A stretch of DNA of 64,000 nt, from NCBI GenBank assembly GCA_964016885.1, contig OZ024753.1:23746001-23810000 (forward strand). The letters run 5' to 3'. How positions within the stretch are numbered: position 1 is the first letter of the stretch; each line of letters opens with the position of its first letter. The notes below the pieces were generated by a model that made no database searches, was not told the DNA's origin, and saw only the letters and a list, made by a program, of their open reading frames with translations. This document shows positions 22,780 to 57,000 of this stretch, piece by piece. A program made the position numbers and the translations under genes. The stretch is from Eledone cirrhosa. Taxonomy: Eukaryota.

Positions 22780-23937
22780 GTGCGTGTGTGTGTGTGTGTG
22801 TTTATGGCTAATGCAGAAAATCAGCATGGAAAAATCTTTAAAAGCTCACACTATGGTAGGGTTCTGCTTTATTTTCTCATGCTGTGGTTGGAATTACAGT
22901 AAATCCATGGCATATCTCCACAGCTATTGGAAATGGACTTCATTCTGCTTCGTTAACTAAAGTCGGAAACTGCAGTGAATTGTTTCATTGAGAAACTGCA
23001 ATTCTCAATAATCCGCAGGAAAAAAGCACATATATATATTCCTACCAAGCTTATCAAATTACTTATTGGAAAATATAACCATCAATTATACTGTGTTGTC
23101 TGACATATATGGATTTCAGAGATACCTTGATTCTTACAAATTTAAACATGTATACAAATACACAGACATACATGCATACAAACACACATACACATACATA
23201 CATGCATACAAGCATACACACACACATACATACATCTATAACTATATATATATAGAGAGAGAGAGAGAGTGATTCATTTTATTAAGACAACATACTTAGA
23301 CTCATTATATAGCCTTAATAAAATATTTAAATTCTACTTCGGTATTGAGTACTCTCTGCCGTCAACCATATATATAGTGAAAGAATGAAGTGTAACATCG
23401 TTGGCTGTACAATAAGGGGCTTTTTTTCAGGTATTGACAATTGTTTCATTGATCAGGTGAGTCTAGAGTCGCTAATCGCTTGAAGTTGCGTCACTCGATC
23501 TACATTACATTATTTACCTCTAACCAATTCCTCAGAATTCTAAAACAATTCACTCAAGGCAAGATATATATAGAGAAATAGCGTATAATCAAAACAATAA
23601 CATCAATAATAAAATATATATGATAAATAGGTAGAGAAGTTACAGATGTAAAAAGTAAAAGATAAGAAAAAAGATACAGTAAAAAAGTAAGAAAATGGAA
23701 AAATATAAAGAAATAAGGATAAGTGAGAACATATAAGTACAGAATATGATAGTGGTGGTGGTGAGTAAGTGTTCGTATAAGGATTCTGTGGTGGATTTAG
23801 TGCTAACATGAAAGTCATATTCGAAACATACATAGATACGTGTAGAGAGTCTGATGTAGTGACAGATAAAAGAAAAAGCAATAAATTAGAGATTAATTGG
23901 GGGATAGTGAATTAAAAGGGTGGATGGTGAATTGAGG

Positions 23938-31745: not shown

Positions 31746-31748
<3 letters not shown>

Positions 31749-32099
31749 CTGCGGTAAGAATTTTTTCTTATATCAAAGTTTAATGGGCTTCCACTGAAGA
31801 TTTATAAGTGCCCACCTAAATATATTCTTACATGAATATATGTTAGGCTTCTACATAAACTGGAAACATTCTCCCAACTTATAGAAAACTTATAATGAAA
31901 CAATTGTTTGGAAAGAGAGATATATTTTAACTTTAATTATATCTCATAAAATAATACAACTGGCTTTCCACAAAATACATATAGTTATCACCCTAAACAC
32001 TTAAATTGGGTTATACTAACATATAACCTAATGTTTGTTGAGTGAGATGGTTACCAGTCGCAGTTTAGCGTTAAGCTATCTCTGTTATTTTATTAAATA
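31746..32099 (+). mobile_element. Solo, diverged, inverted copy of the ribozyme-bearing part of the 1-kb satellite monomer
   Basis: Reverse complement of ~33690-34041 with scattered substitutions; (AT)n on both sides. Confidence 0.9.
31789..31913 (+). ncRNA. Type I hammerhead ribozyme family D (solo copy)
   Basis: TTCCA-CTGAAGA-T-TTATAAG...CTTATAA-T-GAAA-CAATTG-TT^TGGAA. Confidence 0.78.
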
Positions 32100-32115
32100 T
32101 ATTATATATATATAT

Positions 32116-32473: not shown

Positions 32474-33077
32474 GTAATAATAATAAAATTGAAGACTAAA
32501 ATCCAAAGAGGGCTCGATAAGGATAAACATATATCAAATATATAAGAACCGTAGAGCAAATATTTATTAAAATAACAGATTAAAGTTTAAGCAAAGAATC
32601 GCTGCTTTCACCGTTAACGGGATCTTCTGAAACAAACAAAGTCAATCTGTAAACGCAGAACTGGATATTTCAAAAAACGTTGCAACCGGAGGAAGACAGG
32701 AAGACGATACTTTGGTTCGTGGAAACGTTCGTTGGCAAAGAACGGGAAAAAACGAATAATACGTCATTAATAGGAGCGGTGAAAAACAATTACGCGCAAA
32801 GACAGAACCACGTTAATGGTATAAAAGAGGTCGTAGACTAATGTTCTCTTAGATGGTGCATAGAGACGTTCTCAGGCAATGAACGAAAACGAAGATAATA
32901 CGTTATAATTTTAGTCTACGACTTCTGCTATACCATTTACGTGGTTTTGTCTTGGCGTGCTATTGTTCTCCACGCTCCACATATGACGTATTATCTTCGT
33001 TTTTCATTCATTGCCAGAGAACGTCTCTATGCACCACCTAAGAGAACATTAGTCTACGACCTTTTTTATACCATAAA
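32474..33077. mobile_element. Family C pLTR fold-back, cut off by the satellite array; contains an HHR-C copy at 32577-32648 (minus)
   Basis: 32474-32903 matches 19691-~20118; 32903-33077 is an inverted pLTR segment ending exactly where the array starts. Confidence 0.85.
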
Positions 33078-36000
33078 ATGACCGGCAAATTTGAATTTCC
33101 AGCAGTTTTTGACTGAGGAAGTATTGTAGCGTCACTAAGCGGGAAGGGGAGACAACCAAGATCCACGAAAGGAGGAAAAAAAAATAATATACACGCGGGT
33201 TAATTAGTGTTTTCGAAAACATTATCAATCCAACGTGTTAAGAACTCAATTGAAATTTAAAAAATAAATATATGCGTGTATAAATTACACACGCATATAG
33301 ATATTTTCTTAGGCTAAAATCAGAGGTTGTACCTGAATAAGAAACCGCATCTCGTAACCGTAGTAAATACGGAAAATTATGGTTTAAAGGGCAAATGGGA
33401 ATGTAAATCTCCGGCCGAATTAAGAGTAAAATATAAAACACAAGCAGGTTAATTAGTTATTTCAAAACCAATATCAATTCCTCGTTTAAAGAACTCAATT
33501 AATTTAAAAAAATAAATGTATGCATGTAATTATATACATAGGCATATATATATATTTTCCTAGGCTAAAAAACTGAGAAGTTACAACCAATAAAAACCAC
33601 AATATCGCACAACAGTAATAAATACGGAAGGTCAAACTTATAAGGTACCTGGAAATAAACACCTCTGGCCAATCAAGAGTAAAATATTAATACAATAACA
33701 GAGATAGGTTAAAGCTAATCTCTGACTGGTAACCATCTCACTCAACAAACATTAGGTTGTATTTTAATATAAACCCAATTTAAGTGTTTGGGGTGCTAAC
33801 AATATGTATTATGTGGAAAAGCCAGTTGCATTATTTTATGAGATATAATTAAAGTTAAAATATATCTCTCTTTCCAAACAATTGTTTCATTATAAGTTTT
33901 CTAGAAATTCGGAGAATATTTCCAGTTTATGTAGAAGCCTAATATACATTCATGTAAGAATATATTTAGGTGGGCGCTTATAAATCATCAGTGGAAGCCC
34001 ATTAAACTTTGATATAAGAAAAACATTTCTTACCATAGTTAAAAATCGTGTCTGTTAATTTGCTCCCTCCCGCATCGAATGACCGGCAAATTTGAAATTC
34101 CAGCAGTTTTTGAGTGAGGAAGTATTGTAACGTCACTAAGCGGCAAGGGGAGACAACCAAGATCCACGAAAGGAGGAACAAAAATAATATACACGCGGGT
34201 TAATTAGCTGTTTCGAAAACATTATCAATCCAACGTGTTAAGAACTGAATTGAAATTAATAAAAATAAATATATGCGTGTATAAATTACACACGCATATA
34301 GATATTTTCTTAGGCTAAAATCAGAGGTTGTACCTGAATAAGAAACCGCATCTCGTAACCGTAGTAAATACGGAAAGTTATGGTTTAAAGGGCAAATGGG
34401 AATGTAAATCTCCGGCCGAATTAAGAGTAAAATATAAAACACACGCAGTTTAATTAGTTATTTCAAATCCAATATCAATTCCTCGTGTAAAGAACTCAAT
34501 TAATTTAAAAAAATAAATGTATGCATGTAATTATATACATAGGCATATATATATATTTTCCTAGGCTAAAAAACAGAGAAGTTACAACCAATATAAACCA
34601 CAATATCGCACAACAGTAATAAATACGGAAGGTCAAACTTATAAGGTACCTGGATATAAACACCTCTGGCCAATCAAGAGTAAAATATTAATACAATAAC
34701 AGAGATAGGTTAAAGCTAATCTCTGACTGGTAACCACCTCACTCAACAAACATTAGGTTGTATTTTAATATAAACCCAATTTAAGTGTTTGGGGTGCTAA
34801 CAATATGTATTATGTGGAAAAGCCAGTTGCATTATTTTATGAGATATAATTAAAGTTAAAATATATCTCTCTTTCCAAACAATTGTTTCATTATAAGTTT
34901 TCTACAAATTCGGAGAATATTTCCAGTTTATGTAGAAGCCTAATATACATTCATGTAAGAATATATTTAGGTGGGAGCTTATAAATCATCAGTGGAAGCC
35001 CATTAAACTTTGATATAAGAAAAACATTTCTTACCATAGTTAAAAATCGTGTCTGTTAATTTGCTCCCTCCCGCATCGAATGACCGGCAAATTTGAAATT
35101 CCAGCAGTTTTTGAGTGAGGAAGTATTGTAACGTCACTAAGCGGCAAGGGGAGACAACCAAGATCCACGAAAGGAGGAAAGAAAATAATATACACGCGGG
35201 TTAATTAGCTTTTTCGAAAAAATTATCAATCCAACGTGTTAAGAACTCAATTGAAATTAAAAAAATAAATATATGCGTGTATAAATTACACACGCATATA
35301 GATATTTTCTTAGGCTAAAATCAGAGGTTGTACCTGAATAAGAAACCGCATCTCGTAACCGTAGTAAATACGGAAAATTATGGTTTAAAGGGCAAATGGG
35401 AATGTAAATCTCCGGCCGAATTAAGAGTAAAATATAAAACACAAGCAGGTTAATTAGTTATTTCAAAACCAATATCAATTCCTCGTGTAAAGAACTCAAT
35501 TAATTAAAAAAAATAAATGTATGCATGTAATTATATACATAGGCATATATATATATTTTCCTAGGCTAAAAAACTGAGAAGTTACAACCAATAAAAACCA
35601 CAATATCGCACAACAGTAATAAATACGGAAGGTCAAACTTATAAGGTACCTGGAAATAAACACCTCTGGCCAATCAAGAGTAAAATATTAATACAATAAC
35701 AGAGATAGGTTAAAGCTAATCTCTGACTGGTAACCACCTCACTCAACAAACATTAGGTTGTATTTTAATATAAACCCAATTTAAGTGTTTGGGGTGCTAA
35801 CAATATGTATTATGTGGAAAAGCCAGTTGCATTATTTTATGAGATATAATTAACGTTAAAATATATCTCTCTTTCCAAACAATTGTTTCATTATAAGTTT
35901 TCTACAAATTCGGAGAATATTTCCAGTTTATGTAGAAGCCTAATATACATTCATGTAAGAATATATTTAGGTGGGAGCTTATAAATCATCAGTGGAAGCC

Positions 36001-39000
36001 CATTAAACTTTGATATAAGAAAAACATTTCTTACCATAGTTAAAAATCGTGTCTGTTAATTTGCTCCCTCCCGCATCGAATGACCGGCAAATTTGAAATT
36101 CCAGCAGTTTTTGAGTGAGGAAGTATTGTAACGTCACTAAGCGGCAAGGGGAGACAACCAAGATCCACGAAAGGAGGAAAGAAAATAATATACACGCGGG
36201 TTAATTAGCTTTTTCGAAAAAATTATCAATCCAACGTGTTAAGAACTCAATTGAAATTAAAAAAATAAATATATGCGTGTATAAATTACACACGCATATA
36301 GATATTTTCTTAGGCTAAAATCAGAGGTTGTACCTGAATAAGAAACCGCATCTCGTAACCGTAGTAAATACGGAAAATTATGGTTTAAAGGGCAAATGGG
36401 AATGTAAATCTCCGGCCGAATTAAGAGTAATATATAAAACACAAGCAGGTTAATTAGTTATTTCAAAACCAATATCAATTCCTCGTGTAAAGAACTCAAT
36501 TAATTAAAAAAAATAAATGTATGCATGTAATTATATACATAGGCATATATATATATTTTCCTAGGCTAAAAAACTGAGAAGTTACAACCAATAAAAACCA
36601 CAATATCGCACAACAGTAATAAATACGGAAGGTCAAACTTATAAGGTACCTGGAAATAAACACCTCTGGCCAATCAAGAGTAAAATATTAATACAATAAC
36701 AGAGATAGGTTAAAGCTAATCTCTGACTGGTAACCATCTCACTCAACAAACATTAGGTTGTATTTTAATATAAACCCAATTTAAGTGTTTGGGGTGCTAA
36801 CAATATATATTATGTGGAAAAGCCAGTTGCATTATTTTATGAGATATAATTAAAGTTAAAATATATCTCTCTTTCCAAACAATTGTTTCATTATAAGTTT
36901 TCTAGAAATTCGGAGAATATTTCCAGTTTATGTAGAAGCCTAATATACATTCATGTAAGAATATATTTAGGTGGGCGCTTATAAATCATCAGTGGAAGCC
37001 CATTAAACTTTGATATAAGAAAAACATTTCTTACCATAGTTAAAAATCGTGTCTGTTAATTTGCTCCATCCCGCATCGAATGACCGGCAAATTTGAAATT
37101 CCAGCAGTTTTTGAGTGAGGAAGTATTGTAACGTCACTAAGCGGCAAGGGGAGACAACCAAGATCAAAGGAAAGGAGGAAAAAAAATAATATACACGCGG
37201 GTTAATTAGCTTTTTCGAAAACATTATCAATCCAACGTGTTAAGAACTGAATTGAAATTGAAAAAAATAAATATATGCGTGTATAAATTACACACGCATA
37301 TAGATATTTTCTTAGGCTAAAATCAGAGGTTGTACCTGAATAAGAAACCGCATCTCGTAACCGTAGTAAATACGGAAAGTTATGGTTTAAAGGGCAAATG
37401 GGAATGTAAATCTCCGGCCGAATTAAGAGTAAAAAAAAAAACACACGCAGGTTAATTAGTTATTTCAAAACCAATATCAATTCCTCGTGTAAAGAACTCA
37501 ATTAATTAAAAAAAATAAATGTATGCATGTAATTATATACATAGGCATATATATATATTTTCCTAGGCTAAAAAACTGAGAAGTTACAACCAATAAAAAC
37601 CACAATATCGCACAACAGTAATAAATACGGAAGGTCAAACTTATAAGGTACCTGGAAATAAACACCTCTGGCCAATCAAGAGTAAAATATTAATACAATA
37701 ACAGAGATAGGTTAAAGCTAATCTCTGACTGGTAACCATCTCACTCAACAAACATTAGGTTGTATTTTAATATAAACCCAATTTAAGTGTTTGGGGTGCT
37801 AACAATATATATTATGTGGAAAAGCCAGTTGCATTATTTTATGAGATATAATTAAAGTTAAAATATATCTCTCTTTCCAAACAATTGTTTCATTATAAGT
37901 TTTCTAGAAATTCGGAGAATATTTCCAGTTTATGTAGAAGCCTAATATACATTCATGTAAGAATATATTTAGGTGGGCGCTTATAAATCATCAGTGGAAG
38001 CCCATTAAACTTTGATATAAGAAAAACATTTCTTACCATAGTTAAAAATCGTGTCTGTTAATTTGCTCCCTCCCGCATCGAATGACCGGCAAATTTGAAA
38101 TTCCAGCAGTTTTTGAGTGAGGAAGTATTGTAACGTCACTAAGCGGCAAGGGGAGACAACCAAGATCAAAGAAAAGGAGGAAAAAAAATAATATACACGC
38201 GGGTTAATTAGCTTTTTCGAAAACATTATCAATCCAACGTGTTAAGAACTGAATTGAAATTGAAAAAAATAAATATATGCGTGTATAAATTACACACGCA
38301 TATAGATATTTTCTTAGGCTAAAATCAGAGGTTGTACCTGAATAAGAAACCGCATCTCGTAACCGTAGTAAATACGGAAAGTTATGGTTTAAAGGGCAAA
38401 TGGGAATGTAAATCTCCGGCCGAATTAAGAGTAAAAATTAAAACACACGCAGGTTAATTAGTTATTTCAAATCCAATATCAGTTCCTCGTGTAAAGAACT
38501 CAATTAATTTAAAAAAATAAATGTATGCATGTAATTATATACATAGGCATATATATATATTTTCCTAGGCTAAAAAACAGAGAAGTTACAACCAATAAAA
38601 ACCACAATATCGCACAACAGTAATAAATACGGAAGGTCAAACTTATAAGGTAGCTGGAAATAAACACCTCTGGCCAATCACGAGTAAAATATTAATACAA
38701 TAACAGAGATAGGTTAAAGCTAATCTCTGACTGGTAACCATCTCACTCAACAAACATTAGGTTGTATTTTAATATAAACCCAATTTAAGTGTTTGGGGTG
38801 CTAACAATATGTATTATGTGGAAAAGCCAGTTGCATTATTTTATGAGATATAATTAAAGTTAAAATATATCTCTCTTTCCAAACAATTGTTTCATTATAA
38901 CTTTTCTACAAATTCGGAGAATATTTCCAGTTTATGTAGAAGCCTAATATACATTCATGTAAGAATATATTTAGGTGGGCGCTTATAAATCATCAGTGGA

Positions 39001-42000
39001 AGCCCATTAAACTTTGATATAAGAAAAACATTTATTAACATAGTTAAAAATCGTGTCTGTTAATTTGCTCCCCCCGCATCGAATGACCTGCAAATTTGAA
39101 ATTCCAGCAGTTTTTGACTGAGGAAGTATTGTAGCGTCACTAAGTGGGAAGGGGAGACAACCAAGATCCACGAAAGGAGGAAAAAAAAATAATATACACG
39201 CGGGTTAATTAGTTTTTTCGAAAACATTATCAATCTGACTGTTAACCATCTCACTCAACAAACATTAGGTTGTATTTTAATATTAACCCAATTTAAGTGT
39301 TTGGGGTGCTAACAATATATATTATGTGGAAAAGCCAGTTGCATTATTTTATGAGATATAATTAAAGTTAAAATATATCTCTCTTTCCAAACAATTGTTT
39401 CATTATAAGTTTTCTACAAATTCGGAGAATATTTCCAGTTTATGTAGAAGCCTAATATACATTCATGTGAGAATATATTTAGGTGGGCGCTTATAAATCA
39501 TCAGTGGAAGCCCATTAAACTTTGATATAAGAAAAACATTTCTTACCATAGTTAAAAATCGTGTCTGTTAATTTGCTCCCTCCCGCATCGAATGACCGGC
39601 AAATTTGAAATTCCAGCAGTTTTTGACTGAGGAAGTATTGTAGCGTCACTAAGCGGCAAGGGGAGACAACCAAGATCCATGAAAGGAGGAAAAAATATAA
39701 TATACACGCGGGTTAATTAGCTTTTTCGAAAACATTATCAATCCAACGTGTTAAGAACTCAATTGAAATTTAAAAAATAAATATATGCGTGTATAAATTA
39801 CACACGCATATAGATATTTTCTTAGGCTAAAATCAGAGGTTGTACCTGAATAAGAAACCGCATCTCGTAACCGTAGTAAATACGGAAAGTTATGGTTTAA
39901 AGGGCAAATGGGAATGTAAATCTCCGGCCGAATTAAGAGTAAAATATAAAACACACGCAGGTTAATTAGTTATTTCAAAACCAATATCAATTCCTCGTGT
40001 AAAGAACTCAATTAATTAAAAAAAATAAATGTATGCATGTAATTATATACATAGGCATATATATATTTTCCTAGGCTAAAAAACAGAGAAGTTACAACCA
40101 ATAAAAACCACAATATCGCACAACAGTAATAAATACGGAAGGTCAAACTTATAAGGTACCTGGAAATAAACACCTCTGGCCAATCAAGAGTAAAATATTA
40201 ATACAATAACAGAGATAGTTTAAACCTAATCTCTGACTGATAACCATCTCACTCAACAAACATTAGGTTGTATTTTAATATAAACCCAATTTAAGTGTTT
40301 GGTGTGCTAACAATATGTATTATGTGGAAAAGCCAGTTGCATTATTTTATGAGATATAATTAAAGTTAAAATATATCTCTCTTTTCAAACAATTGTTTCA
40401 TTATAAGTTTTCTACAAATTCGGAGAATATTTCCAGTTTATGTAGAAGCCTAATATACATTCATGTAAGAATATATTTAGGTGGGCCCTTATAAATCATC
40501 AGTGGAAGCCCATTAAACTTTGATATAAGAAAAACATTTCTTACCATAGTTAAAAATCGTGTCTGTTAATTTGCTCCCTCCCGCATCGAATGACCGGCAA
40601 ATTTGAAATTCCAGCAGTTTTTGAGTGAGGAAGTATTGTAACGTCACTAAGCGGCAAGGGGAGACAACCAAGATCCACGAAAGGAGGAAAAAAAATAATA
40701 TACACGCGGCTTAATTAGCTTTTTCGAAAACATTATCAATCCAACGTGTTAAGAACTCAATTGAAATTTTAAAAATAAATATATGCGTGTATAAATTACA
40801 CTCGCATATAGATATTTTCTTAGGCTAAAATCAGAGGTTGTACCTGAATAAGAAACCGCATCTCGTAACCGTAGTAAATACGGAAAGTTATGGTTTAAAG
40901 GGCAAACGGGAACGTAAATCTCCGGCCGAATTAGGAGTAAAATATAAAACACACGCAGGTTAATTAGTTATTTCAAAACCAATATCAATTCCTCGTGTAA
41001 AGAACTCAATTAATTTAAAAAAATAAATGTATGCATGTAATTATATACATAGGCATATATATATATTTTCCTAGGCTAAAAGACAGAGAAGTTACAACCA
41101 ATAAAAACCACAATATCGCACAACAGTAATAAATACGGAAGGTCAAACTTATGAGGTAGCTGGAAATAAACACCTCTGGCCAATCAAGAGTAAAATATTA
41201 ATACAATAACAGAGATAGTTTAAAGCTAATCTCTGACTGGTAACCATCTCACTCAACAAACATTAGGTTGTATTTTAATATAAACCCAATTTAAGTGTTT
41301 GGGGTGCTAACAATATGTATTATGTGGAAAAGCCAGTTGCATTATTTTATGAGATATAATTAAAGTTAAAATATATCTCTCTTTCCAAACAATTGTTTCA
41401 TTATAAGTTTTCTACAAATTCGGAGAATATTTCCAGTTTATGTAGAAGCCTAATATACATGCATGTAAGAATATATTTAGGTGGGCGCTTATAAATCATC
41501 AGTGGAAGCCCATTAAACTTTGATATAAGAAAAACATTTCTTACCATAGTTAAAAATCGTGTCTGTTAATTTGCTCCCTCCCGCATCGAATGACCGGCAA
41601 ATTTGAAATTCCAGCAGTTTTTGACTGAGGAAGTATTGTAGCGTCACTAAGCGGCAAGGGGAGACAACCAAGATCCACGAAAGGAGGAAAAAATATAATA
41701 TACACGCGGGTTAATTAGCTTTTTCGAAAACATTATCAATCCAACGTGTTAAGAACTCAATTGAAATTAAAAAAATAAATATATGCGTGTATAAATTACA
41801 CACGCATATAGATATTTTCTTAGGCTAAAATCAGAGGTTGTACCTGAATGAGAAACCGCATCTCGTAAACGTAGTAAATACGGAAAGTTATGGTTTAAAG
41901 GGCAAATGGGAATGTAAATCTCCGGCCGAATTAAGAGTAAAATATAAAACACACGCAGGTTAATTAGTTATTTCAAAACCAATATCAATTCCTCGTGTAA

Positions 42001-45000
42001 AGAACTCAATTAATTTAAAAAAATAAATGTATGCATGTAATTATATACATAGGCATATATATATATTTTCCTAGGCTAAAAAACAGAGAAGTTACAACCA
42101 ATAAAAACCACAATATCGCACAACAGTAATAAATACGGAAGGTCAAACTTATAAGGTACCTGGAAATAAACACCTCTGGCCAATCAGGAGTAAAATATTA
42201 ATACAATAACAGAGATAGTTTAAAGCTAATCTCTGACTGGTAACCATCTCACTCAACAAACATTAGGTTGTATTTTAATATAAACCCAATTTAAGTGTTT
42301 GGGGTGCTAACAATATGTATTATGTGGAAAAGCCAGTTGCATTATTTTATGAGATATAATTAAAGTTAAAATATATCTCTCTTTCCAAACAATTGTTTCA
42401 TTATAAGTTTTCTACAAATTCGGAGAATATTTCCAGTTTATGTAGAAGCCTAATATACATTCATGTAAGAATATATTTAGGTGGGCACTTATAAATCATC
42501 AGTGGAAGCCCATTAAACTTTGATATAAGAAAAACATTTCTTACCATAGTTAAAAATCGTGTTTGTTAATTTGCTCCCTCCCGCATCGAATGACCGGCAA
42601 ATTTGAAATTCCAGCAGTTTTTGAGTGAGGAAGTATTGTAACGTCACTAAGCGGCAAGGGGAGACAACCAAGATCCACGAAAGGAGGAAAAAAAATAATA
42701 TACACGCGGGTTAATTAGCTTTTTCGAAAACATTATCAATCCAACGTGTTAAGAACTCAATTGAAATTTTAAAAATAAATATATGCGTGTATAAATTACA
42801 CACGCATATAGATATTTTCTTAGGCTAAAATCAGAGGTTGTACCTGAATAAGAAACCGCATCTCGTAACCGTAGTAAATACGGAAAGTTATGGTTTAAAG
42901 GGCAAACGGGAACGTAAATCTCCGGCCGAATTAGGAGTAAAATATAAAACACACGCAGGTTAATTAGTTATTTCAAAACCAATATCAATTCCTCGTGTAA
43001 AGAACTCAATTAATTTAAAAAAATAAATGTATGCATGTAATTATATACATAGGCATATATATATATTTTCCTAGGCTAAAAGACAGAGAAGTTACAACCA
43101 ATAAAAACCACAATATCGCACAACAGTAATAAATACGGAAGGTCAAACTTATAAGGTAGCTGGAAATAAACACCTCTGGCCAATCAAGAGTAAAATATTA
43201 ATACAATAACAGAGATAGTTTAAAGCTAATCTCTGACTGGTAACCATCTCACTCAACAAACATTAGGTTGTATTTTAATATAAACCCAATTTAAGTGTTT
43301 GGGGTGCTAACAATATGTATTATGTGGAAAAGCCAGTTGCATTATTTTATGAGATATAATTAAAGTTAAAATATATATCTCTTTCCAAACAATTGTTTCA
43401 TTATAAGTTTTCTACAAATTCGGAGAATATTTCCAGTTTATGTAGAAGCCTAATATACATGCATGTAAGAATATATTTAGGTGGGCGCTTACAAATCATC
43501 AGTGGAAGCCCATTAAACTTTGATATAAGAAAAACATTTCTTACCATAGTTAAAAATCGTGTCTGTTAATTTGCTCCCTCCCGCATCGAATGACCGGCAA
43601 ATTTGAAATTCCAGCAGTTTTTGACTGAGGAAGTATTGTAGCGTCACTAAGCGGCAAGGGGAGACAACCAAGATCCACGAAAGGAGGAAAAAATATAATA
43701 TACACGCGGGTTAATTAGCTTTTTCGAAAACATTATCAATCCAACGTGTTAAGAACTCAATTGAAATTAAAAAAATAAATATATGCGTGTATAAATTACA
43801 CACGCATATAGATATTTTCTGAGGCTAAAATCAGAGGTTGTACCTGAATGAGAAACCGCATCTCGTAAACGTAGTAAATACGGAAAGTTATGGTTTAAAG
43901 GGGAAATGGGAATGTAAATCTCCGGCCGAATTAAGAGTAAAATATAAAACACACGCAGGTTAATTAGTTATTTCAAAACCAATATCAATTCCTCGTGTAA
44001 AGAACTCAATTAATTTAAAAAAATAAATGTATGCATGTAATTATATACATAGGCATATATATATATTTTCCTAGGCTAAAAAACAGAGAAGTTACAACCA
44101 ATAAAAACCACAATATCGCACAACAGTAATAAATACGGAAGGTCAAACTTATAAGGTACCTGGAAATAAACACCTCTGGCCAATCAGGAGTAAAATATTA
44201 ATACAATAACAGAGATAGTTTAAAGCTAATCTCTGACTGGTAACCATCTCACTCAACAAACATTAGGTTGTATTTTAATATAAACCCAATTTAAGTGTTT
44301 GGGGTGCTAACAATATGTATTATGTGGAAAAGCCAGTTGCATTATTTTATGAGATATAATTAAAGTTAAAATATATCTCTCTTTCCAAACAATTGTTTCA
44401 TTATAAGTTTTCTACAAATTCGGAGAATATTTCCAGTTTATGTAGAAGCCTAATATACATTCATGTAAGAATATATTTAGGTGGGCACTTATAAATCATC
44501 AGTGGAAGCCCATTAAACTTTGATATAAGAAAAACATTTCTTACCATAGTTAAAAATCGTGTTTGTTAATTTGCTCCCTCCCGCATCGAATGACCGGCAA
44601 ATTTGAAATTCCAGCAGTTTTTGACTGAGGAAGTATTGTAGCGTCACTAAGCGGCAAGGGGAGACAACCAAGATCCACGAAAGGAGGAAAAAATATAATA
44701 TACACGCGGGTTAATTAGCTTTTTCGAAAACATTATTAATCCAACGTGTTAAGAACTCAATTGAAATTAAAAAAATAAATATATGCGTGTATAAATTACA
44801 CACGCATATAGATATTTGCTTAGGCTAAAATCAGAGGTTGTACCTGAATAAGAAACCGCCTCTCGTAACCGTAGTAAATACGGAAAGTTATGGTTTAAAG
44901 GGCAAATGGGAATGTAAATCTCCGGCCCAATTAAGAGTAAAATATAAAACACACGCAGGTTAATTAGTTATTTCAAAACCAATATCAATTCCTCGTGTAA

Positions 45001-48000
45001 AGAACTGAATTAATTAAAAAAAATAAATGTATGCATGTAATTATATACATAGGCATATATATATATTTTCCTAGGCTAAAAAACAGAGAAGTTACAACCA
45101 ATAAAAACCACAATATCGCACAACAGTAATAAATACGGAAGGTCAAACTTATAAGATACCTGGAAATAAACACCTCTGGCCAATCAAGAGTAAAATATTA
45201 ATACAATAACAGAGATAGTTTAAAGCTAATCTCTGACTGGTAACCATCTCACTCAACAAACATTTGGTTGTATTTTAATATAAACCCAATTTAAGTGTTT
45301 GGGGTGCTAACAATATGTATTATGTGGAAAAGCCAGTTGCATTATTTTATGAGATATAATTAAAGTTAAAATATATCTCTCTTTCCAAACAATTGTTTCA
45401 TTATAAGTTTTCTACAAATTCGGAGAATATTTCCAGTTTATGTAGAAGCCTAATATACATGCATGTAAGAATATATTTAAGTGGGCGCTTATAAATCATC
45501 AGTGGAAGCCCATTAAACTTTGATATAAGAAAAACATTTCTTACCATAGTTAAAAATCGTGTCTGTTAATTTGCTCCCTCCCGCATCGAATGACCGGCAA
45601 ATTTGAAATTCCAGCAGTTTTTGAGTGAGGAAGTATTGTAGCGTCACTAAGCGGCAAGGGGAGACAACCAAGATCCACGAAAGGAGGAAAAAATATAATA
45701 TACACGCGGGTTAATTAGCTTTTTCGAAAACATTATCAATCCAACGTGTTAAGAACTCAATTGAAATTTAAAAAATAAATATATGCGTGTATAAATTACA
45801 CACGCATATAGATATTTTCTTAGGCTAAAATCAGAGGTTGTACCTGAATAAGAAACCGCATCTCGTAACCGTAGTAAATACGGAAAGTTATGGTTTAAAG
45901 GGCAAATGGGAATGTAAATCTCCGGCCGAAATAAGAGTAAAATATAAAACACACGCAGGTTAATTAGTTATTTCAAAACCAATATCAATTCCTCGTGTAA
46001 AGAACTCAATTAATTAAAAAAAATAAATGTATGCATGTAATTATATACATAGGCATATATATATTTTCCTAGGCTAAAAAACAGAGAAGTTACAACCAAT
46101 AAAAACCACAATATCGCACAACAGTAATAAATACGGAAGGTCAAACTTATAAGGTACCTGGAAATAAACACCTCTGGCCAATCAAGAGTAAAATATTAAT
46201 ACAATAACAGAGATAGTTTAAACCTAATCTCTGACTGATAACCATCTCACTCAACAAACATTAGGTTGTATTTTAATATAAACCCAATTTAAGTGTTTGG
46301 TGTGCTAACAATATGTATTATGTGGAAAAGCCAGTTGCATTATTTTATGAGATATAATTAAAGTTAAAATATATCTCTCTTTCCAAACAATTGTTTCATT
46401 ATAAGTTTTCTACAAATTCGGAGAATATTTCCAGTTTATGTAGAAGCCTAATATACATTCATGTAAGAATATATTTAGGTGGGCGCTTATAAATCATCAG
46501 TGGAAGCCCATTAAACTTTGATATAAGAAAAACATTTCTTACCATAGTTAAAAATCGTGTCTGTTAATTTGCTCCCTCCCGCATCGAATGACCGGCAAAT
46601 TTGAAATTCCAGCAGTTTTTGAGTGAGGAAGTATTGTAACGTCACTAAGCGGCAAGGGGAGACAACCAAGATCCACGAAAGGAGGAAAAAAATAATATAC
46701 ACGCGGGTTAATTAGCTTTTTCGAAAACATTATTAATCCAACGTGTTAAGAACTCAATTGAAATTAAAAAAATATATATATGCGTGTATAATTTACACAC
46801 GCATATAGATATTTGCTTAGGCTAAAATCAGAGGTTGTACCTGAATGAGAAACTGCATCTCGTAACGGTAGTAAATACGGAAAGTTATGGTTTAAAGGGC
46901 AAACGGGAACGTAAATCTCCGGCCGAATTAGGAGTAAAATATAAAACACACGCAGGTTAATTAGTTATTTCAAAACCAATATCAATTCCTCGTGTAAAGA
47001 ACTCAATTAATTTAAAAAAATAAATGTATGCATGTAATTATATACATAGGCATATATATATATTTTCCTAGGCTAAAAGACAGAGAAGTTACAACCAATA
47101 AAAACCACAATATCGCACAACATTAATAAATACGGAAGGTCAAACTTATAAGATACCTGGAAATAAACACCTCTGGCCAATCAAGAGTAAAATATTAATA
47201 CAAAAACAGAGATAGTTTAAAGCTAATCTCTGACTGGTAACCATCTCACTCAACAAACATTAGGTTGTATTTTAATATAAACCCAATTTAAGTGTTTGGG
47301 GTGCTAACAATATGTATTATGTAGAAAAGCCAGTTGCATTATTTTATGAGATATAATTAAAGTTAAAATATATCTCTCTTTCCAAACAATTGTTTCATTA
47401 TAAGTTTTCTACAAATTCGGAGAATATTTCCAGTTTATGTAGAAGCCTAATATACATTCATGTAAGAATATATTTAGGTGGGCGCTTATAAATCATCAGT
47501 GGAAGCCCATTAAACTTTGATATAAGAAAAACATTTCTTAACATAGTTAAAAATCGTGTCTGTTAATTTGCTCCCTGCCGCATCGAATGACCGGCAAATT
47601 TGAAATTCCAGCAGTTTTTGACTGAGGAAGTATTGTAGCGTCACTAAGTGGGAGGGGGAGACAACCAAGATCCACGAAAGGAGGAAAAAAAAATAATATA
47701 CACGCGGGTTAATTAGTTTTTTCGAAAACATTATCAATCTGACTGGTAACCATCTCACTCAACAAACATTAGGTTGTATTTTAATATGAACCCAATTTAA
47801 GTGTTTGGGGTGCTAACAATATGTATTATGTGGAAAAGCCAGTTGCATTATTTTATGAGATATAATTAAAGTTAAAATATATCTCTCTTTCCAAACAATT
47901 GTTTCATTATAAGTTTTCTACAAATTCGGAGAATATTTCCAGTTTATGTAGAAGCCTAATATACATTCATGTAAGAATATATTTAGGTGGGCGCCTATAA

Positions 48001-51000
48001 ATCATCAGTGGAAGCCCATTAAACTTTGATATAAGAAAAACATTTCTTAACATAGTTAAAAATCGTGTCTGTTAATTTGCTCCCTCCCGCATCGAATGAC
48101 CGGCAAATTTGAAATTCCAGCAGTTTTTGACTGAGGAAGTATTGTAGCGTCACTAAGTGGGGGGGGGGAGACAACCAAGATCCACGAAAGGAGGAAAAAA
48201 AAATAATGTACACGCGGGTTAATTAGTTTTTTCGAAAACATTATCAATCTGACTGGTAACCATCTCACTCAACAAACATTAGGTTGTATTTTAATATAAA
48301 CCCAATTTAAGTGTTTGGGGTGCTAACAATATGTATTATGTGGAAAAGCCAGTTGCATTATTTTATGAGATATAATTAAAGTTAAAATATATCTCTCTTT
48401 CCAAACAATTGTTTTATTATAAGTTTTCTACAAATTCGGAGAATATTTCCAGTTTATGTAGAAGCCTAATATACATTCATGTAAGAATATATTTAGGTGG
48501 GCGCTTATAAATCATCAGTGGAAGCCCATTAAACTTTGATATAAGAAAAACATTTCTTACCATAGTTAAAAATCGTGTCTGTTAATTTGCTCCCTCCCGC
48601 ATCGAATGACCGGCAAATTTGAAACTCCAGCAGTTTTTGTAACATCACTAAGCGGCAAGGGGAGACAACAAAGATCCTCGAAAGTAGGAACAAAAATAAT
48701 ATACACGCGGTTTAATTAGCTTTTTCGAAAACATTATCAATCCAACGTGTTAAGAACTCAATTGAAATTTAAAAAATATATATATGCGTGTATAATTTAC
48801 ACACGCATATAGATATTTTCTTAGGCTAAAATCAGAGTTTGTACCTGAATAAGAAACCGCACCTCGTAACCGTAGTAAATACGGAAAGTTATGGTTTAAA
48901 GGGCAAATGGGAATGTAAATCTCCGGCCGAATTAAGAGTAAAATATAAAACACACGCAGGTTAATTAGTTATTTCAAAACCAATATCAATTCCTCGTGTA
49001 AAGAACTCAATTAATTTAAAAAAATAAATGCATGCATGTAATTATATACATAGGCATATATATATTTTCCTAGGCTAAAAAACAGAGAAGTTACAACCAA
49101 TAAAAACCACAATATCGCACAACAGTAATAAATACGGAAGGTCAAACTTATAAGGTACCTGGAAATAAACACCTCTGGCCAATCAAGAGTAAAATATTAA
49201 TACAATAACAGAGATAGTTTAAAGCTAATCTCTGACTGGTAACCATCTCACTCAACAAACATTAGGTTGTATTTTAATATAAACCCAATTTAAGTGTTTG
49301 GGGTGCTAACAATATGTATTATGTGGAAAAGCCAGTTGCATTATTTTATGAGATATAATTAAAGTTAAAATATATCTCTCTTTCCAAACAATTGTTTCAT
49401 TATAAGTTTTCTACAAATTCGGAGAATATTTCCAGTTTATGTAGAAGCCTAATATACATTCATGTAAGAATATATTTAGGTGGGCGCTTATAAATCATCA
49501 GTGGAAGCCCATTAAACTTTGATATAAGAAAAACTTTTCTTACCATAGTTAAAAATCGTGTCTGTTAATTTGCTCCCTCCCGCATCGAATGACCGGCAAA
49601 TTTGAAATTCCAGCAGTTTTTTACTAAGGAAGTTTTGTAGCGTCACTAAGCGGCAAGGGGAGACAACCAAGATCCACGAAAGGAGGAAAAAAAAATAATA
49701 TACACGCGGGTTAATTAGCTTTTTCGAAAACATTATCAATCCAACGTGTTAAGAACTCAATTGAAATTAAAAAAATAAATATATGCGTGTATAAATTACA
49801 CACGCATATTGATATTTTCTTAGGTTAAAATCAGAGGTTGTACCTGAATAAGAAACCGCATCTCGTAACCGTAGTAAATACGGAAAGTTATGGTTTAAAG
49901 GGCAAATGGGAATGTAAATCTCCGGCCGAATTAAGAGTAAAATATAAAGCACACACAGGTTAATTAGTTATTTCAAAACCAATATCAATTCCTCGTGTAA
50001 AGAACTCAATTAATTTAAAAAAATAAATGTATGCATGTAATTATATACATAGGCATATATATATATTTTCCTAGGCTAAAAAACAGAGAAGTTACAACTA
50101 ATAAAAACCACAATATCGCACAACAGTAATAAATACGGAAGGTCAAACTTATAAGATACCTGGAAATAAACACCTCTGGCCAATCAAGAGTAAACTATTA
50201 ATACAATAACAGAGATAGTTTAAAGCTAATCTCTGACTGGTAACCATCTCACTCAACAAACATTAGGTTGTATTTTAATATAAACCCAATTTAAGTGTTT
50301 GGGGTGCTAACAATATGTATTATGTGGAAAAGCCAGTTGCATTATTTTATGAGATATAATTAAAGTTAAAATATATCTCTCTTTCCAAACAATTGTTTCA
50401 TTATAAGTTTTCTACAAATTCGGAGAATATTTCCAGTTTATGTAGAAGCCTAATATACATTCATGTAAGAATATATTTAGGTGGGCGCTTATAAATCATC
50501 AGTGGAAGCCCATTAAACTTTGATATAAGAAAAACTTTTCTTACCATAGTTAAAAATCGTGTCTGTTAATTTGCTCCCTCCCGCATCGAATGACCGGCAA
50601 ATTTGAAATTCCAGCAGTTTTTTACTAAGGAAGTATTGTAGCGTCACTAAGCGGCAAGGGGAGACAACCAAGATCCACGAAAGGAGGAAAAAAAATAATA
50701 TACACGCGGGTTAATTAGCTTTTTCGAAAACATTATCAATCCAACGTGTTAAGAACTCAATTGAAATTAAAAAAATAAATATATGCGTGTATAAATTACA
50801 CACGCATATAGATATTTTCTGAGGCTAAAATCAGAGGTTGTACCTGAATGAGAAACCGCATCTCGTAAACGTAGTAAATACGGAAAGTTATGGTTTAAAG
50901 GGGAAATGGGAATGTAAATCTCCGGCCGAATTAAGAGTAAAATATAAAACACACGCAGGTTAATTAGTTATTTCAAAACCAATATCAATTCCTCGTGTAA

Positions 51001-54000
51001 AGAACTCAATTAATTTAAAAAAATAAATGTATGCATGTAATTATATACATAGGCATATATATATATTTTCCTAGGCTAAAAAACAGAGAAGTTACAACCA
51101 ATAAAAACCATAATATCGCACAACAGTAATAAATACGGAAGGTCAAACTTATAAGGTACCTGGAAATAAACACCTCTGGCCAATCAGGAGTAAAATATTA
51201 ATACAATAACAGAGATAGTTTAAAGCTAATCTCTGACTGGTAACCATCTCACTCAACAAACATTAGGTTGTATTTTAATATAAACCCAATTTAAGTGTTT
51301 GGGGTGCTAACAATATGTATTATGTGGAAAAGCCAGTTGCATTATTTTATGAGATATAATTAAAGTTAAAATATATCTCTCTTTCCAAACAATTGTTTCA
51401 TTATAAGTTTTCTACAAATTCGGAGAATATTTCCAGTTTATGTAGAAGCCTAATATACATTCATGTAAGAATATATTTAGGTGGGCACTTATAAATCATC
51501 AGTGGAAGCCCATTAAACTTTGATATAAGAAAAACATTTCTTACCATAGTTAAAAATCGTGTTTGTTAATTTGCTCCCTCCCGCATCGAATGACCGGCAA
51601 ATTTGAAATTCCAGCAGTTTTTGACTGAGGAAGTATTGTAGCGTCACTAAGCGGCAAGGGGAGACAACCAAGATCCACGAAAGGAGGAAAAAATATAATA
51701 TACACGCGGGTTAATTAGCTTTTTCGAAAACATTATTAATCCAACGTGTTAAGAACTCAATTGAAATTAAAAAAATAAATATATGCGTGTATAAATTACA
51801 CACGCATATAGATATTTGCTTAGGCTAAAATCAGAGGTTGTACCTGAATAAGAAACCGCCTCTCGTAACCGTAGTAAATACGGAAAGTTATGGTTTAAAG
51901 GGCAAATGGGAATGTAAATCTCCGGCCCAATTAAGAGTAAAATATAAAACACACGCAGGTTAATTAGTTATTTCAAAACCAATATCAATTCCTCGTGTAA
52001 AGAACTGAATTAATTAAAAAAAATAAATGTATGCATGTAATTATATACATAGGCATATATATATATTTTCCTAGGCTAAAAAACAGAGAAGTTACAACCA
52101 ATAAAAACCACAATATCGCACAACAGTAATAAATACGGAAGGTCAAACTTATAAGATACCTGGAAATAAACACCTCTGGCCAATCAAGAGTAAAATATTA
52201 ATACAATAACAGAGATAGTTTAAAGCTAATCTCTGACTGGTAACCATCTCACTCAACAAACATTTGGTTGTATTTTAATATAAACCCAATTTAAGTGTTT
52301 GGGGTGCTAACAATATGTATTATGTGGAAAAGCCAGTTGCATTATTTTATGAGATATAATTAAAGTTAAAATATATCTCTCTTTCCAAACAATTGTTTCA
52401 TTATAAGTTTTCTACAAATTCGGAGAATATTTCCAGTTTATGTAGAAGCCTAATATACATGCATGTAAGAATATATTTAAGTGGGCGCTTATAAATCATC
52501 AGTGGAAGCCCATTAAACTTTGATATAAGAAAAACATTTCTTACCATAGTTAAAAATCGTGTCTGTTAATTTGCTCCCTCCCGCATCGAATGACCGGCAA
52601 ATTTGAAATTCCAGCAGTTTTTGAGTGAGGAAGTATTGTAGCGTCACTAAGCGGCAAGGGGAGACAACCAAGATCCACGAAAGGAGGAAAAAATATAATA
52701 TACACGCGGGTTAATTAGCTTTTTCGAAAACATTATCAATCCAACGTGTTAAGAACTCAATTGAAATTTAAAAAATAAATATATGCGTGTATAAATTACA
52801 CACGCATATAGATATTTTCTTAGGCTAAAATCAGAGGTTGTACCTGAATAAGAAACCGCATCTCGTAACCGTAGTAAATACGGAAAGTTATGGTTTAAAG
52901 GGCAAATGGGAATGTAAATCTCCGGCCGAAATAAGAGTAAAATATAAAACACACGCAGGTTAATTAGTTATTTCAAAACCAATATCAATTCCTCGTGTAA
53001 AGAACTCAATTAATTAAAAAAAATAAATGTATGCATGTAATTATATACATAGGCATATATATATTTTCCTAGGCTAAAAAACAGAGAAGTTACAACCAAT
53101 AAAAACCACAATATCGCACAACAGTAATAAATACGGAAGGTCAAACTTATAAGGTACCTGGAAATAAACACCTCTGGCCAATCAAGAGTAAAATATTAAT
53201 ACAATAACAGAGATAGTTTAAACCTAATCTCTGACTGATAACCATCTCACTCAACAAACATTAGGTTGTATTTTAATATAAACCCAATTTAAGTGTTTGG
53301 TGTGCTAACAATATGTATTATGTGGAAAAGCCAGTTGCATTATTTTATGAGATATAATTAAAGTTAAAATATATCTCTCTTTCCAAACAATTGTTTCATT
53401 ATAAGTTTTCTACAAATTCGGAGAATATTTCCAGTTTATGTAGAAGCCTAATATACATTCATGTAAGAATATATTTAGGTGGGCGCTTATAAATCATCAG
53501 TGGAAGCCCATTAAACTTTGATATAAGAAAAACATTTCTTACCATAGTTAAAAATCGTGTCTGTTAATTTGCTCCCTCCCGCATCGAATGACCGGCAAAT
53601 TTGAAATTCCAGCAGTTTTTGAGTGAGGAAGTATTGTAACGTCACTAAGCGGCAAGGGGAGACAACCAAGATCCACGAAAGGAGGAAAAAAATAATATAC
53701 ACGCGGGTTAATTAGCTTTTTCGAAAACATTATTAATCCAACGTGTTAAGAACTCAATTGAAATTAAAAAAATATATATATGCGTGTATAATTTACACAC
53801 GCATATAGATATTTGCTTAGGCTAAAATCAGAGGTTGTACCTGAATGAGAAACTGCATCTCGTAACGGTAGTAAATACGGAAAGTTATGGTTTAAAGGGC
53901 AAACGGGAACGTAAATCTCCGGCCGAATTAGGAGTAAAATATAAAACACACGCAGGTTAATTAGTTATTTCAAAACCAATATCAATTCCTCGTGTAAAGA

Positions 54001-57000
54001 ACTCAATTAATTTAAAAAAATAAATGTATGCATGTAATTATATACATAGGCATATATATATATTTTCCTAGGCTAAAAGACAGAGAAGTTACAACCAATA
54101 AAAACCACAATATCGCACAACATTAATAAATACGGAAGGTCAAACTTATAAGATACCTGGAAATAAACACCTCTGGCCAATCAAGAGTAAAATATTAATA
54201 CAAAAACAGAGATAGTTTAAAGCTAATCTCTGACTGGTAACCATCTCACTCAACAAACATTAGGTTGTATTTTAATATAAACCCAATTTAAGTGTTTGGG
54301 GTGCTAACAATATGTATTATGTAGAAAAGCCAGTTGCATTATTTTATGAGATATAATTAAAGTTAAAATATATCTCTCTTTCCAAACAATTGTTTCATTA
54401 TAAGTTTTCTACAAATTCGGAGAATATTTCCAGTTTATGTAGAAGCCTAATATACATTCATGTAAGAATATATTTAGGTGGGCGCTTATAAATCATCAGT
54501 GGAAGCCCATTAAACTTTGATATAAGAAAAACATTTCTTAACATAGTTAAAAATCGTGTCTGTTAATTTGCTCCCTGCCGCATCGAATGACCGGCAAATT
54601 TGAAATTCCAGCAGTTTTTGACTGAGGAAGTATTGTAGCGTCACTAAGTGGGAGGGGGAGACAACCAAGATCCACGAAAGGAGGAAAAAAAAATAATATA
54701 CACGCGGGTTAATTAGTTTTTTCGAAAACATTATCAATCTGACTGGTAACCATCTCACTCAACAAACATTAGGTTGTATTTTAATATGAACCCAATTTAA
54801 GTGTTTGGGGTGCTAACAATATGTATTATGTGGAAAAGCCAGTTGCATTATTTTATGAGATATAATTAAAGTTAAAATATATCTCTCTTTCCAAACAATT
54901 GTTTCATTATAAGTTTTCTACAAATTCGGAGAATATTTCCAGTTTATGTAGAAGCCTAATATACATTCATGTAAGAATATATTTAGGTGGGCGCCTATAA
55001 ATCATCAGTGGAAGCCCATTAAACTTTGATATAAGAAAAACATTTCTTAACATAGTTAAAAATCGTGTCTGTTAATTTGCTCCCTCCCGCATCGAATGAC
55101 CGGCAAATTTGAAATTCCAGCAGTTTTTGACTGAGGAAGTATTGTAGCGTCACTAAGTGGGGGGGGGGAGACAACCAAGATCCACGAAAGGAGGAAAAAA
55201 AAATAATGTACACGCGGGTTAATTAGTTTTTTCGAAAACATTATCAATCTGACTGGTAACCATCTCACTCAACAAACATTAGGTTGTATTTTAATATAAA
55301 CCCAATTTAAGTGTTTGGGGTGCTAACAATATGTATTATGTGGAAAAGCCAGTTGCATTATTTTATGAGATATAATTAAAGTTAAAATATATCTCTCTTT
55401 CCAAACAATTGTTTTATTATAAGTTTTCTACAAATTCGGAGAATATTTCCAGTTTATGTAGAAGCCTAATATACATTCATGTAAGAATATATTTAGGTGG
55501 GCGCTTATAAATCATCAGTGGAAGCCCATTAAACTTTGATATAAGAAAAACATTTCTTACCATAGTTAAAAATCGTGTCTGTTAATTTGCTCCCTCCCGC
55601 ATCGAATGACCGGCAAATTTGAAACTCCAGCAGTTTTTGTAACATCACTAAGCGGCAAGGGGAGACAACAAAGATCCTCGAAAGTAGGAACAAAAATAAT
55701 ATACACGCGGTTTAATTAGCTTTTTCGAAAACATTATCAATCCAACGTGTTAAGAACTCAATTGAAATTTAAAAAATATATATATGCGTGTATAATTTAC
55801 ACACGCATATAGATATTTTCTTAGGCTAAAATCAGAGTTTGTACCTGAATAAGAAACCGCACCTCGTAACCGTAGTAAATACGGAAAGTTATGGTTTAAA
55901 GGGCAAATGGGAATGTAAATCTCCGGCCGAATTAAGAGTAAAATATAAAACACACGCAGGTTAATTAGTTATTTCAAAACCAATATCAATTCCTCGTGTA
56001 AAGAACTCAATTAATTTAAAAAAATAAATGCATGCATGTAATTATATACATAGGCATATATATATTTTCCTAGGCTAAAAAACAGAGAAGTTACAACCAA
56101 TAAAAACCACAATATCGCACAACAGTAATAAATACGGAAGGTCAAACTTATAAGGTACCTGGAAATAAACACCTCTGGCCAATCAAGAGTAAAATATTAA
56201 TACAATAACAGAGATAGTTTAAAGCTAATCTCTGACTGGTAACCATCTCACTCAACAAACATTAGGTTGTATTTTAATATAAACCCAATTTAAGTGTTTG
56301 GGGTGCTAACAATATGTATTATGTGGAAAAGCCAGTTGCATTATTTTATGAGATATAATTAAAGTTAAAATATATCTCTCTTTCCAAACAATTGTTTCAT
56401 TATAAGTTTTCTACAAATTCGGAGAATATTTCCAGTTTATGTAGAAGCCTAATATACATTCATGTAAGAATATATTTAGGTGGGCGCTTATAAATCATCA
56501 GTGGAAGCCCATTAAACTTTGATATAAGAAAAACTTTTCTTACCATAGTTAAAAATCGTGTCTGTTAATTTGCTCCCTCCCGCATCGAATGACCGGCAAA
56601 TTTGAAATTCCAGCAGTTTTTTACTAAGGAAGTTTTGTAGCGTCACTAAGCGGCAAGGGGAGACAACCAAGATCCACGAAAGGAGGAAAAAAAAATAATA
56701 TACACGCGGGTTAATTAGCTTTTTCGAAAACATTATCAATCCAACGTGTTAAGAACTCAATTGAAATTAAAAAAATAAATATATGCGTGTATAAATTACA
56801 CACGCATATTGATATTTTCTTAGGTTAAAATCAGAGGTTGTACCTGAATAAGAAACCGCATCTCGTAACCGTAGTAAATACGGAAAGTTATGGTTTAAAG
56901 GGCAAATGGGAATGTAAATCTCCGGCCGAATTAAGAGTAAAATATAAAACACACACAGGTTAATTAGTTATTTCAAAACCAATATCAATTCCTCGTGTAA

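Follow-up and report, generated by a model that had tools for sequence, protein, structure and literature searches.

In the octopus Eledone cirrhosa, a tandem array of non-coding repeats carries a type I hammerhead motif in which an 80-nt domain with two hairpins extends helix II. The motif was found in all 27 units of the array and in a solo copy that lies elsewhere in the window, i.e., the whole stretch of 64,000 nucleotides that was analyzed (contig OZ024753.1, positions 23,746,001 to 23,810,000). In the best explanation, to which we give about three chances in four, the helix II of a type I hammerhead motif bears a three-way-junction domain that covaries, and the motif is located on a non-coding repeat of 0.7–1.0 kb that is likely a non-autonomous Penelope-like element (PLE) of the Hydra clade, with the cycle proposed below. 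This explanation draws on the sequence, the covariation, the structure of the copies, the absence of an ORF, and the presence of Hydra ORFs beside hammerheads of the same type.

A two-hairpin arm on helix II

The core CUGANGA, the GAAA box, and an NUH site follow each other in the order of a type I hammerhead, with helix I open (Table 1). This core is intact in 25 of the 27 array copies; two copies have a G12A change, and in one copy helix I is broken. The initial annotation had described a stem II capped by a two-hairpin domain of about 80 nt, and this observation is confirmed, since every element listed was found at its place. The further hairpin reported past stem I is present, and the solo copy does have a Watson–Crick pair where the array has a wobble. 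Similarly, the second hairpin was said to occur in most monomers, and its lower stem is intact in 24 of 27 array copies, although a single substitution breaks it in the copy at 33889..33984 and in two others.

Table 1. Features of the hammerhead repeat and related motifs (window positions).
Feature	Position	Strand	Remarks
First core box, CUGAUGA	33985..33991	minus	Pattern match; depending on the subfamily, U, A, or C occurs at position 7 (the scan fixed all other core letters)
Helix II domain, 96 nt (A9 to G12)	33889..33984	minus	U10.1·U11.1, helix II of 7–8 bp, three-way junction, two hairpins
U10.1 and U11.1	33984 and 33889	minus	
Helix II strands, UUAUAAG/CUUAUAA	33983–33977/33896–33890	minus	Exactly 80 nt between the strands
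Hairpin 1 of insert	33938..33970	minus	Most variable sequence; double changes in 5 of 13 pairs
Hairpin 2 of insert	33899..33936	minus	7-bp stem, internal loop, 3-bp upper stem
Junction strand GCCCA	33971..33975	minus	Unpaired in the three-way junction; complement of the UGGGC directly upstream of helix I
UGGGC, 5′ flank of helix I	33997..34001	minus	Candidate partner of GCCCA (putative pseudoknot or alternative off-fold)
Helix I	33996–33992 with 33876–33872	minus	4 bp kept; one compensatory change
GAAA; 8-nt palindromic helix III; U17 of the GUU triplet	33888–33885; 33885–33878; 33877	minus	
Predicted cut	between 33877 and 33876	minus	3′ of GUU
Hairpin after helix I	33840..33868	minus	Fold prediction
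AU-rich site, ~185 nt past the cut	33680..33700	minus	Dispersed copies end here and join (TA)n; putative start of reverse transcription
Tandem array, ~1,000-nt non-coding unit	33077..58066	minus	27 hammerhead motifs, with ~510-nt deleted units among the repeats and a higher-order duplication of 7,000 nt
Solo 5′-truncated copy, sister subfamily	31746..32104	plus	91% identical; core at 31794; (TA)n flanks, typical 3′ end
Second long-helix-II hammerhead motif	23420..23550	minus	Unrelated in sequence; 81-nt domain, same helix III, GUC site

The 181-nt region folds at z = −2.76, a value that none of 200 shuffles equaled, and the unconstrained minimum free energy (MFE) fold of the copy at 33889..33984 is without helix II. 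Contigs from three other public runs (one study, run type not on record) span the insert, which is therefore not an assembly artefact. Each array unit also holds an internal duplication of about 255 nt (73% identical; 34180–34690 and its equivalents in every unit), which explains why the young unit reaches about 1,000 nt compared with 730–743 nt in older subfamilies. Between 43900 and 58000, the array contains a 7,000-nt duplication, 99.8% identical, in which the ~510-nt deleted units recur together with the G12A copy and which results either from a recent unequal exchange or from duplication in the assembly.

The U·U at position 10.1–11.1 had also been presented as unusual. It is present, in place of the usual though not obligatory G10.1-C11.1, but it is not an unusual trait, as it has been published, varies within the family, and is found in other Hydra-type hammerheads. 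In the 18 aligned rows of the family, this position is U·U or another mismatch in 13, A-U in three, and G-C in two. Among 58 public Hydra-type motifs, the closing pair is G-C in 26, U·U in 22, G·U in five, and A-U in five, which makes U·U the second commonest. In the genome itself (8,097 short matches), a short motif that shares this helix III and is closed by U·U predominates among the matches listed. U10.1-U11.1 has been noted in hammerheads (PMC3088659), the axolotl HHR_Amex2 is closed by U·U and is reported to cleave to 22% as a monomer and better as a dimer (PMC7229834), and the Hydra magnipapillata row of a 2014 supplement already combines a U·U closing with a long helix III (PMC4209133). 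Together with the 22 public motifs, these reports rule out the U·U as a novelty.

The only other U·U-closed motif found by a scan of the window has a broken core, CAGAAGA (at 32629, 19845, and 21088). The 3′ end of the array is joined to an inverted piece of the (TA)n-flanked repeat that bears it (32401–33077, 19616–20202, 21001–21157, 31322–31552), and this repeat is possibly the “family C” of the initial annotation. In addition, several families with long inserts (L061–L157) close 10.1–11.1 with A·A, C·A, or A·G, mismatches that were absent from the 58 short motifs of public origin; this position may be less constrained on a long helix.

Long helix II domains in the genome and conservation of the insert fold

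Hammerhead motifs with a long helix II recur in many other families of this genome, a point that goes beyond the initial annotation, as does the Hydra-clade affinity of the element. The core with the same helix III gave 3,046 matches with 55–80 nt between the boxes (eight in the control) and 4,586 with 81–110 nt (three in the control). These ~7,600 long matches, a count that is limited to 55–110 nt and at times includes nested cores twice, are similar in abundance to the 8,097 short ones. The loci that were fetched yielded 184 distinct motifs in eight multi-member families and 12 singletons, with domains of 57–104 nt and a helix I of their own in each. Family-consensus inserts fold at z values of −1.7 to −5.7, mostly as long irregular hairpins and not as three-way junctions. 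At least five long-insert families are located downstream of the ends of Hydra-type ORFs, and the family of the second long motif in the window is found in this position elsewhere in the genome.

Several features of these families were noted in passing. In most of them (L061–L157, families 1–7), AAUAAA occurs within about 10 nt after the cut site. In four with 78–83-nt inserts (L062, L097, L110, and L130), GUA and AGAC are kept facing each other where the hairpin of the insert begins, at its base, an arrangement that we take to resemble a loop-E or bulged-G motif. The longest domain found, of 104 nt, belongs to a singleton with an alternative helix III palindrome (L098, reverse strand, core at index 829).

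Outside this genome, 57 of 93 public loci encoding related proteins hold this type of motif, in a scan that permitted inserts of up to 200 nt; many of the 36 loci without it are on short contigs. The 58 distinct motifs have helix II domains of only 10–31 nt. In a FastTree analysis, the long-insert ORFs of the genome group with its own 11-nt family, apart from 30 outside elements (support 0.97). The tree comprises 42 of 44 rows (two with <120 residues were dropped), several of them partial, does not include a reference Hydra sequence, and places one unlabelled row of this genome among the outside elements. This grouping, together with the 10–31 nt of the public motifs, suggests that on present sampling the long arm looks lineage-specific.

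The pattern of the array family matched 3,205 times in the genome and never in a reversed control. In all, 113 distinct copies were collected, in clusters up to ~35–40% apart, and 18 related rows were picked by hand for the alignment. In this alignment, 92.5% of 810 cells are paired in the proposed structure, as against 35–49% with slid partners, and the proportion is 90–99% in helices I–III. Double changes affect 12 of 45 pairs, with at least one in each of helices I, II, and III. Three of five measures were never reached in 500 shuffles. The strictest covariation measure is borderline, as its 12 pairs were reached by six of the 500, and further pair types do not rise above the shuffles (439 of 500 reach the value). 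Hairpin 1 is mis-registered in the alignment by a bulge, and many of the changes fall on one deep branch.

RNAalifold, used unguided, recovers helices I–III and both hairpins. When inserts were folded singly, an identical three-way junction was obtained in 17 of the 18 selected copies (z from −2.1 to −9.4); the exception carries a mutation in helix II, and in one row the first hairpin is formed by different letters. Between two distant subfamilies (L032 and L211), eight of nine differing pairs are compensatory, a count that leaves out position 10.1–11.1 and the upper pairs of hairpin 1. The length of the insert remains at 94–97 nt over ~35% divergence, and hairpin 2 is nearly invariant in sequence. 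According to the initial annotation, a lack of structure-compatible variation among homologs would have spoken against the domain. Such variation is present, both in the 18 rows and in the L032/L211 comparison, which supports conservation of the two-hairpin domain as a structure.

Helix III, which cannot fold alone, reaches −6.4 kcal/mol as a duplex, and its palindrome is kept by a double change in eight of the 18 rows. This switch fits pairing between two copies, and helix III is predicted to form in this way.

As to the function of the insert, the initial annotation suggested a protein-binding or regulatory domain. GGGC, upstream of helix I, could pair with GCCC in the junction, and four of the five pairs are invariant in 18 of 18 rows, with no covariation in these rows. 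The duplex is worth −7.5 kcal/mol and displaces helix II in the MFE of the copy at 33889..33984. Since helix II measures 9 bp and helix I only 4–5 bp, we lean somewhat toward a competing off-fold over a pseudoknot that activates. It may be that the insert tunes cleavage by presenting GCCCA to UGGGC beside helix I, a reading that we hold tentatively and at a little below even odds. A pseudoknot common to all long families was considered and rejected: a comparable duplex between flank and insert (a 7-bp candidate) was found in one of seven other families, and the rest were unconvincing. As GGGC/GCCC does not covary and the other families have no clear equivalent, two further accounts of the insert remain live.

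The first of these, a serious possibility though not our preferred one, retains the ribozyme and the element as described and regards the insert as tolerated growth, for which any sequence that folds back and keeps helix II closed would do. Helix II points away from the core and dimeric PLE hammerheads need no loop contact, so that sequence would be free to accumulate there. It would account for the inserts of the eight families, which are mostly unrelated in sequence, 58–96 nt long, and mainly irregular hairpins, as well as for the equal abundance of the short form with the same helix III and the 10–31 nt of the public Hydra-type motifs. However, it does not readily explain the unpaired GCCC, GGGC, and UAA (the last after the hairpin-2 stem), which are the same in all 18 rows amid neighbors that vary, or a length held constant over such divergence.

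The second account, which we consider unlikely, is that the insert serves chiefly to bind the helper reverse transcriptase (RT)-endonuclease or a host protein, for copying in trans or chaperoning of the ribozyme. The near-invariance of hairpin 2 and the location of the insert within ~200–300 nt of the fixed 3′ end agree with this, and the hammerhead region of an Anolis PLE has been tied to the element's protein in vitro (PMC11167929). Yet the RNA segment required in Anolis is described as downstream of the hammerhead start (PMC11167929), and the autonomous Hydra elements of this genome carry inserts without detected similarity to this one.

A probable Hydra-clade Penelope-like element and its predicted ribozyme

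The dispersed copies of the family show PLE-like features. In loci selected by pattern, 72 of 76 terminal copies end 160–220 nt past the predicted cut and join (TA)n, and eight further copies are internal units of 696–993 nt (tandem units elsewhere measure 696–1009 nt). The 5′ ends are scattered, as expected of 5′ truncation, and some copies are longer than one unit. Insertion in (TA)n, a fixed 3′ end, and 5′ truncation are the marks of Hydra-clade PLEs, and a non-coding tandem repeat with one type I hammerhead motif per unit is that of non-LTR retrozymes. The fixed 3′ end, the scattered 5′ ends, and the copies of more than one unit are the hallmark of target-primed reverse transcription that starts internally, on a template that, at the ribozyme, is either uncut or circular; internal initiation by the RT has been seen in vitro for the Anolis PLE (PMC11167929). 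As a circle, the unit is predicted to be highly structured (MFE z = −4.6, 25 shuffles).

No match to a Hydra-protein HMM was found in five stretches of the array's hammerhead family (control E = 2e-267), and an ORF with DKT, a CxCx5C linker, and GIY-YIG at its C-terminus is absent from this family. Its hammerhead nevertheless has the 8–10-nt palindromic helix III type of the Hydra ORF elements, and helix III is identical in two other long-insert repeats, L151 and L184. DKT and CxCx5C are present in both of these, as is a ~3.0-kb unit bounded by two hammerhead motifs with 90-nt inserts; L151, a two-core locus, has a 2,986-bp unit with identical 168-bp repeats, and by motif check L184 has the features of an autonomous Hydra-type ORF, of which intact 778-aa copies exist in the genome. 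DKT, CxCx5C, and (TA)n targeting have been described as characteristic of the Hydra clade (bioRxiv 2021.04.23.441226), and the clade assignment rests on these published motifs. Pfam left both Hydra ORF pieces unrecognized.

Among the fetched loci, no autonomous element shared the array family's own hammerhead or homology to its terminal repeats. Hydra ORFs close to family copies were rejected as partners, being separate insertions with (TA)n in between. An origin from Naiad elements, which would have supplied the missing Naiad hammerheads, was also discarded: the adjoining ORFs are Hydra-type, with GIY-YIG near the C-terminus and not N-terminal. The element is most likely a non-autonomous Hydra-clade PLE (retrozyme), to which a Hydra-type helper would be supplied in trans. 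Tandem, intact, and near-identical Hydra-type elements with a period of 3,017 bp (L184, L185, and L194; contig C4, ~204.1–204.6 Mb) are candidates for currently active helpers. Hydra-type PLEs with hammerheads were also seen in contigs filed as bacterial MAGs (L338–L353), which are likely DNA of animal hosts in the bins.

In the cycle proposed for this element, tandem copies would be transcribed, and two hammerheads would pair via their palindromic helix III and cut slowly after GUU, with the insert acting as a folded module that holds helix II closed. The units might then be ligated into circles. A Hydra-type RT-endonuclease would nick (TA)n in trans and begin copying ~185 nt downstream of the cut. 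It would usually read through the site, on uncut or circular RNA, to give 5′-truncated, more-than-unit, and tandem copies, and now and then run off at the cut, leaving copies that begin there. In this scheme, the steps of cleavage, dimer formation, and circularization are inferred, as are which element acts as helper and what the insert does.

Self-cleavage 3′ of N17 is likely for the predicted ribozyme. As a genomic proxy for it, insertions were counted whose 5′ end meets (TA)n within −6..+2 of the predicted cut. There are 30 such loci, 14 at +1, one at −1, seven at −2, and eight at −5/−6 (AT microhomology). The single control, a T-before-GG site ~55 nt downstream, gave 11 loci, two of them clean and four with an extra T/A (6 of 11 if the extra T/A is permitted), so that T-before-GG is a hotspot at the control as well. 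The difference has p ~0.001 for 14 vs. 2 (where two of the 14 loci may be one duplicated locus), 22 vs. 6, and 30 vs. 11; the two anchors are equally sensitive, with 21 and 23 matches among 54 copies sampled. A wider scan showed similar peaks at microhomology sites among the matches listed. With one control and such peaks elsewhere, the excess is suggestive only, a hint of cleavage in vivo. PLE hammerheads have been described as weak cleavers in vitro, and in the Anolis experiments reported, hammerhead mutants had no effect on insertion in vitro and no RNA ends were seen at the cut (PMC11167929).

These data bear on a third alternative, an improbable one in our view, in which the motif no longer cleaves and is kept as a structural or promoter signal, the array being a satellite expanded at the DNA level. 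The array has indeed no normal 3′ end and contains the near-identical 7,000-nt duplication, deleted units, two G12A copies, and one broken helix I; most dispersed copies read through the cut site, and GUU is a weak cleavage triplet. However, changes in helix I and in the helix III palindrome are all compensated, the cut shows an excess of 5′ ends, and expansion of this one array in DNA is compatible with a ribozyme that is active in the family. Lastly, a chance match to the hammerhead consensus in AT-rich repeats, suggested by AU-rich helices, by a single-copy unconstrained MFE that beats the active-like fold by 2.5–3.9 kcal/mol, and by the absence of an Rfam match, is largely refuted by the covariation, by the excess of pattern matches over controls, and by unrelated families that keep helix I complementarity with different sequences.

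Taking the ribozyme and the PLE together, a broader hypothesis may be put forward, speculative and on balance unlikely to hold in full. One Hydra-clade lineage and its non-coding parasites would have turned helix II into a platform for folded domains of 55–110 nt (at least 7,600 copies in at least eight families) that escape standard searches. In the array family this domain would be riboswitch-like: the invariant GGGC/GCCC would gate cleavage and keep RNA uncut or circular for internal reverse transcription, with an occasional cut that leaves its record in 5′ ends.

Detection and relation to known systems

The prediction that motif searches restricted to a short helix II would miss this ribozyme was borne out. 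Rfam gave no hammerhead match at E ≤ 1 in the window or at E ≤ 10 in 33700–34200, and its matches in the window were rejected as microsatellite-driven miRNA/snoRNA noise. Rfam likewise failed to detect the short hammerheads of the window, located at 675(−), 967(+), 3387(+), and 61137(−) and at 17443(−) and 63749(−). These comprise minimal motifs near Penelope-like ORFs of other clades (e.g., 61438–63567, minus) and a motif with a 31-nt helix II domain; two more Penelope-like RT/GIY-YIG ORF fragments are present at 9128–10294(−) and 12514–14468(+). Among published descriptors, that of min-HHR allows only 3–10 nt for loop 2 (PMC4209133, Fig. S7), and Craig et al. used a spacer of 7–17 nt and reported “half cores” of 35–50 nt in Naiads (PMC8557442). 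Censuses based on a short loop 2 can therefore miss about as many motifs as they find (~7,600 long vs. 8,097 short here), and elements scored as hammerhead-free may need to be re-checked.

In the literature searched, no PLE or retrozyme hammerhead from nature had a branched domain on helix II, although one could be present in repeat databases, in Lünse et al. (2017), or in the supplements of the 2026 preprint, Perreault et al., and Craig et al. The motif is judged to be a genuine and structurally new form of a ribozyme and an element whose types are known, its U·U being ordinary. The role of hammerheads in PLEs is considered an open question (PMC8557442). For its study, the array family offers one ribozyme type in natural variants, short and long, closed by U·U or by G-C, all within a single genome, plus intact helper ORFs. 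In addition, 5′ ends at the cut site are a countable DNA footprint, which makes cleavage in vivo testable from genomes alone. Helix II is also the place where ribozyme engineers attach aptamers, and a natural regulated domain at this place, if found, would be of interest to ribozyme biochemists.

The closest known systems are the hammerheads of Hydra-clade PLEs (Cervera and de la Peña, 2014, PMC4209133; Craig et al., 2021, PMC8557442), which are likewise type I, with a short helix I and a palindromic helix III, in a repeat unit inserted in (TA)n. They differ in helix II, of 7–8 bp in the minimal motifs described and 10–31 nt in the 58 public Hydra-type motifs, whereas the domain here is branched and measures 96 nt; the array family also lacks an ORF. 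Metazoan non-LTR retrozymes (Cervera and de la Peña, 2020, PMC7229834; Li et al., 2026, bioRxiv 10.64898/2026.07.22.740005) share non-coding tandem repeats, one type I hammerhead per unit, low GC, a predicted structured unit, and a proposed PLE origin. In contrast, the present unit of 0.7–1.0 kb is at or above the reported 51–972 bp, its 3′ end is fixed in (TA)n as in PLEs, and the usual small loop 2 is missing. Naiad “HHR_half_core” motifs (PMC8557442) also have core boxes farther apart than descriptors permit (35–50 nt), but they are presented without an assigned helix II domain, and the Naiad endonuclease is N-terminal, whereas it is C-terminal in the ORFs beside long-insert motifs. Finally, a Watson–Crick helix joining the regions of stems I and II has been predicted in ~40% of hammerheads (Perreault et al., 2011, PMC3088659), to which GGGC/GCCC is a candidate likeness. 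Here, however, the partner strand would belong to a three-way junction seated on a stem II of 9 bp, longer than stem I, a geometry that makes an activating contact doubtful.
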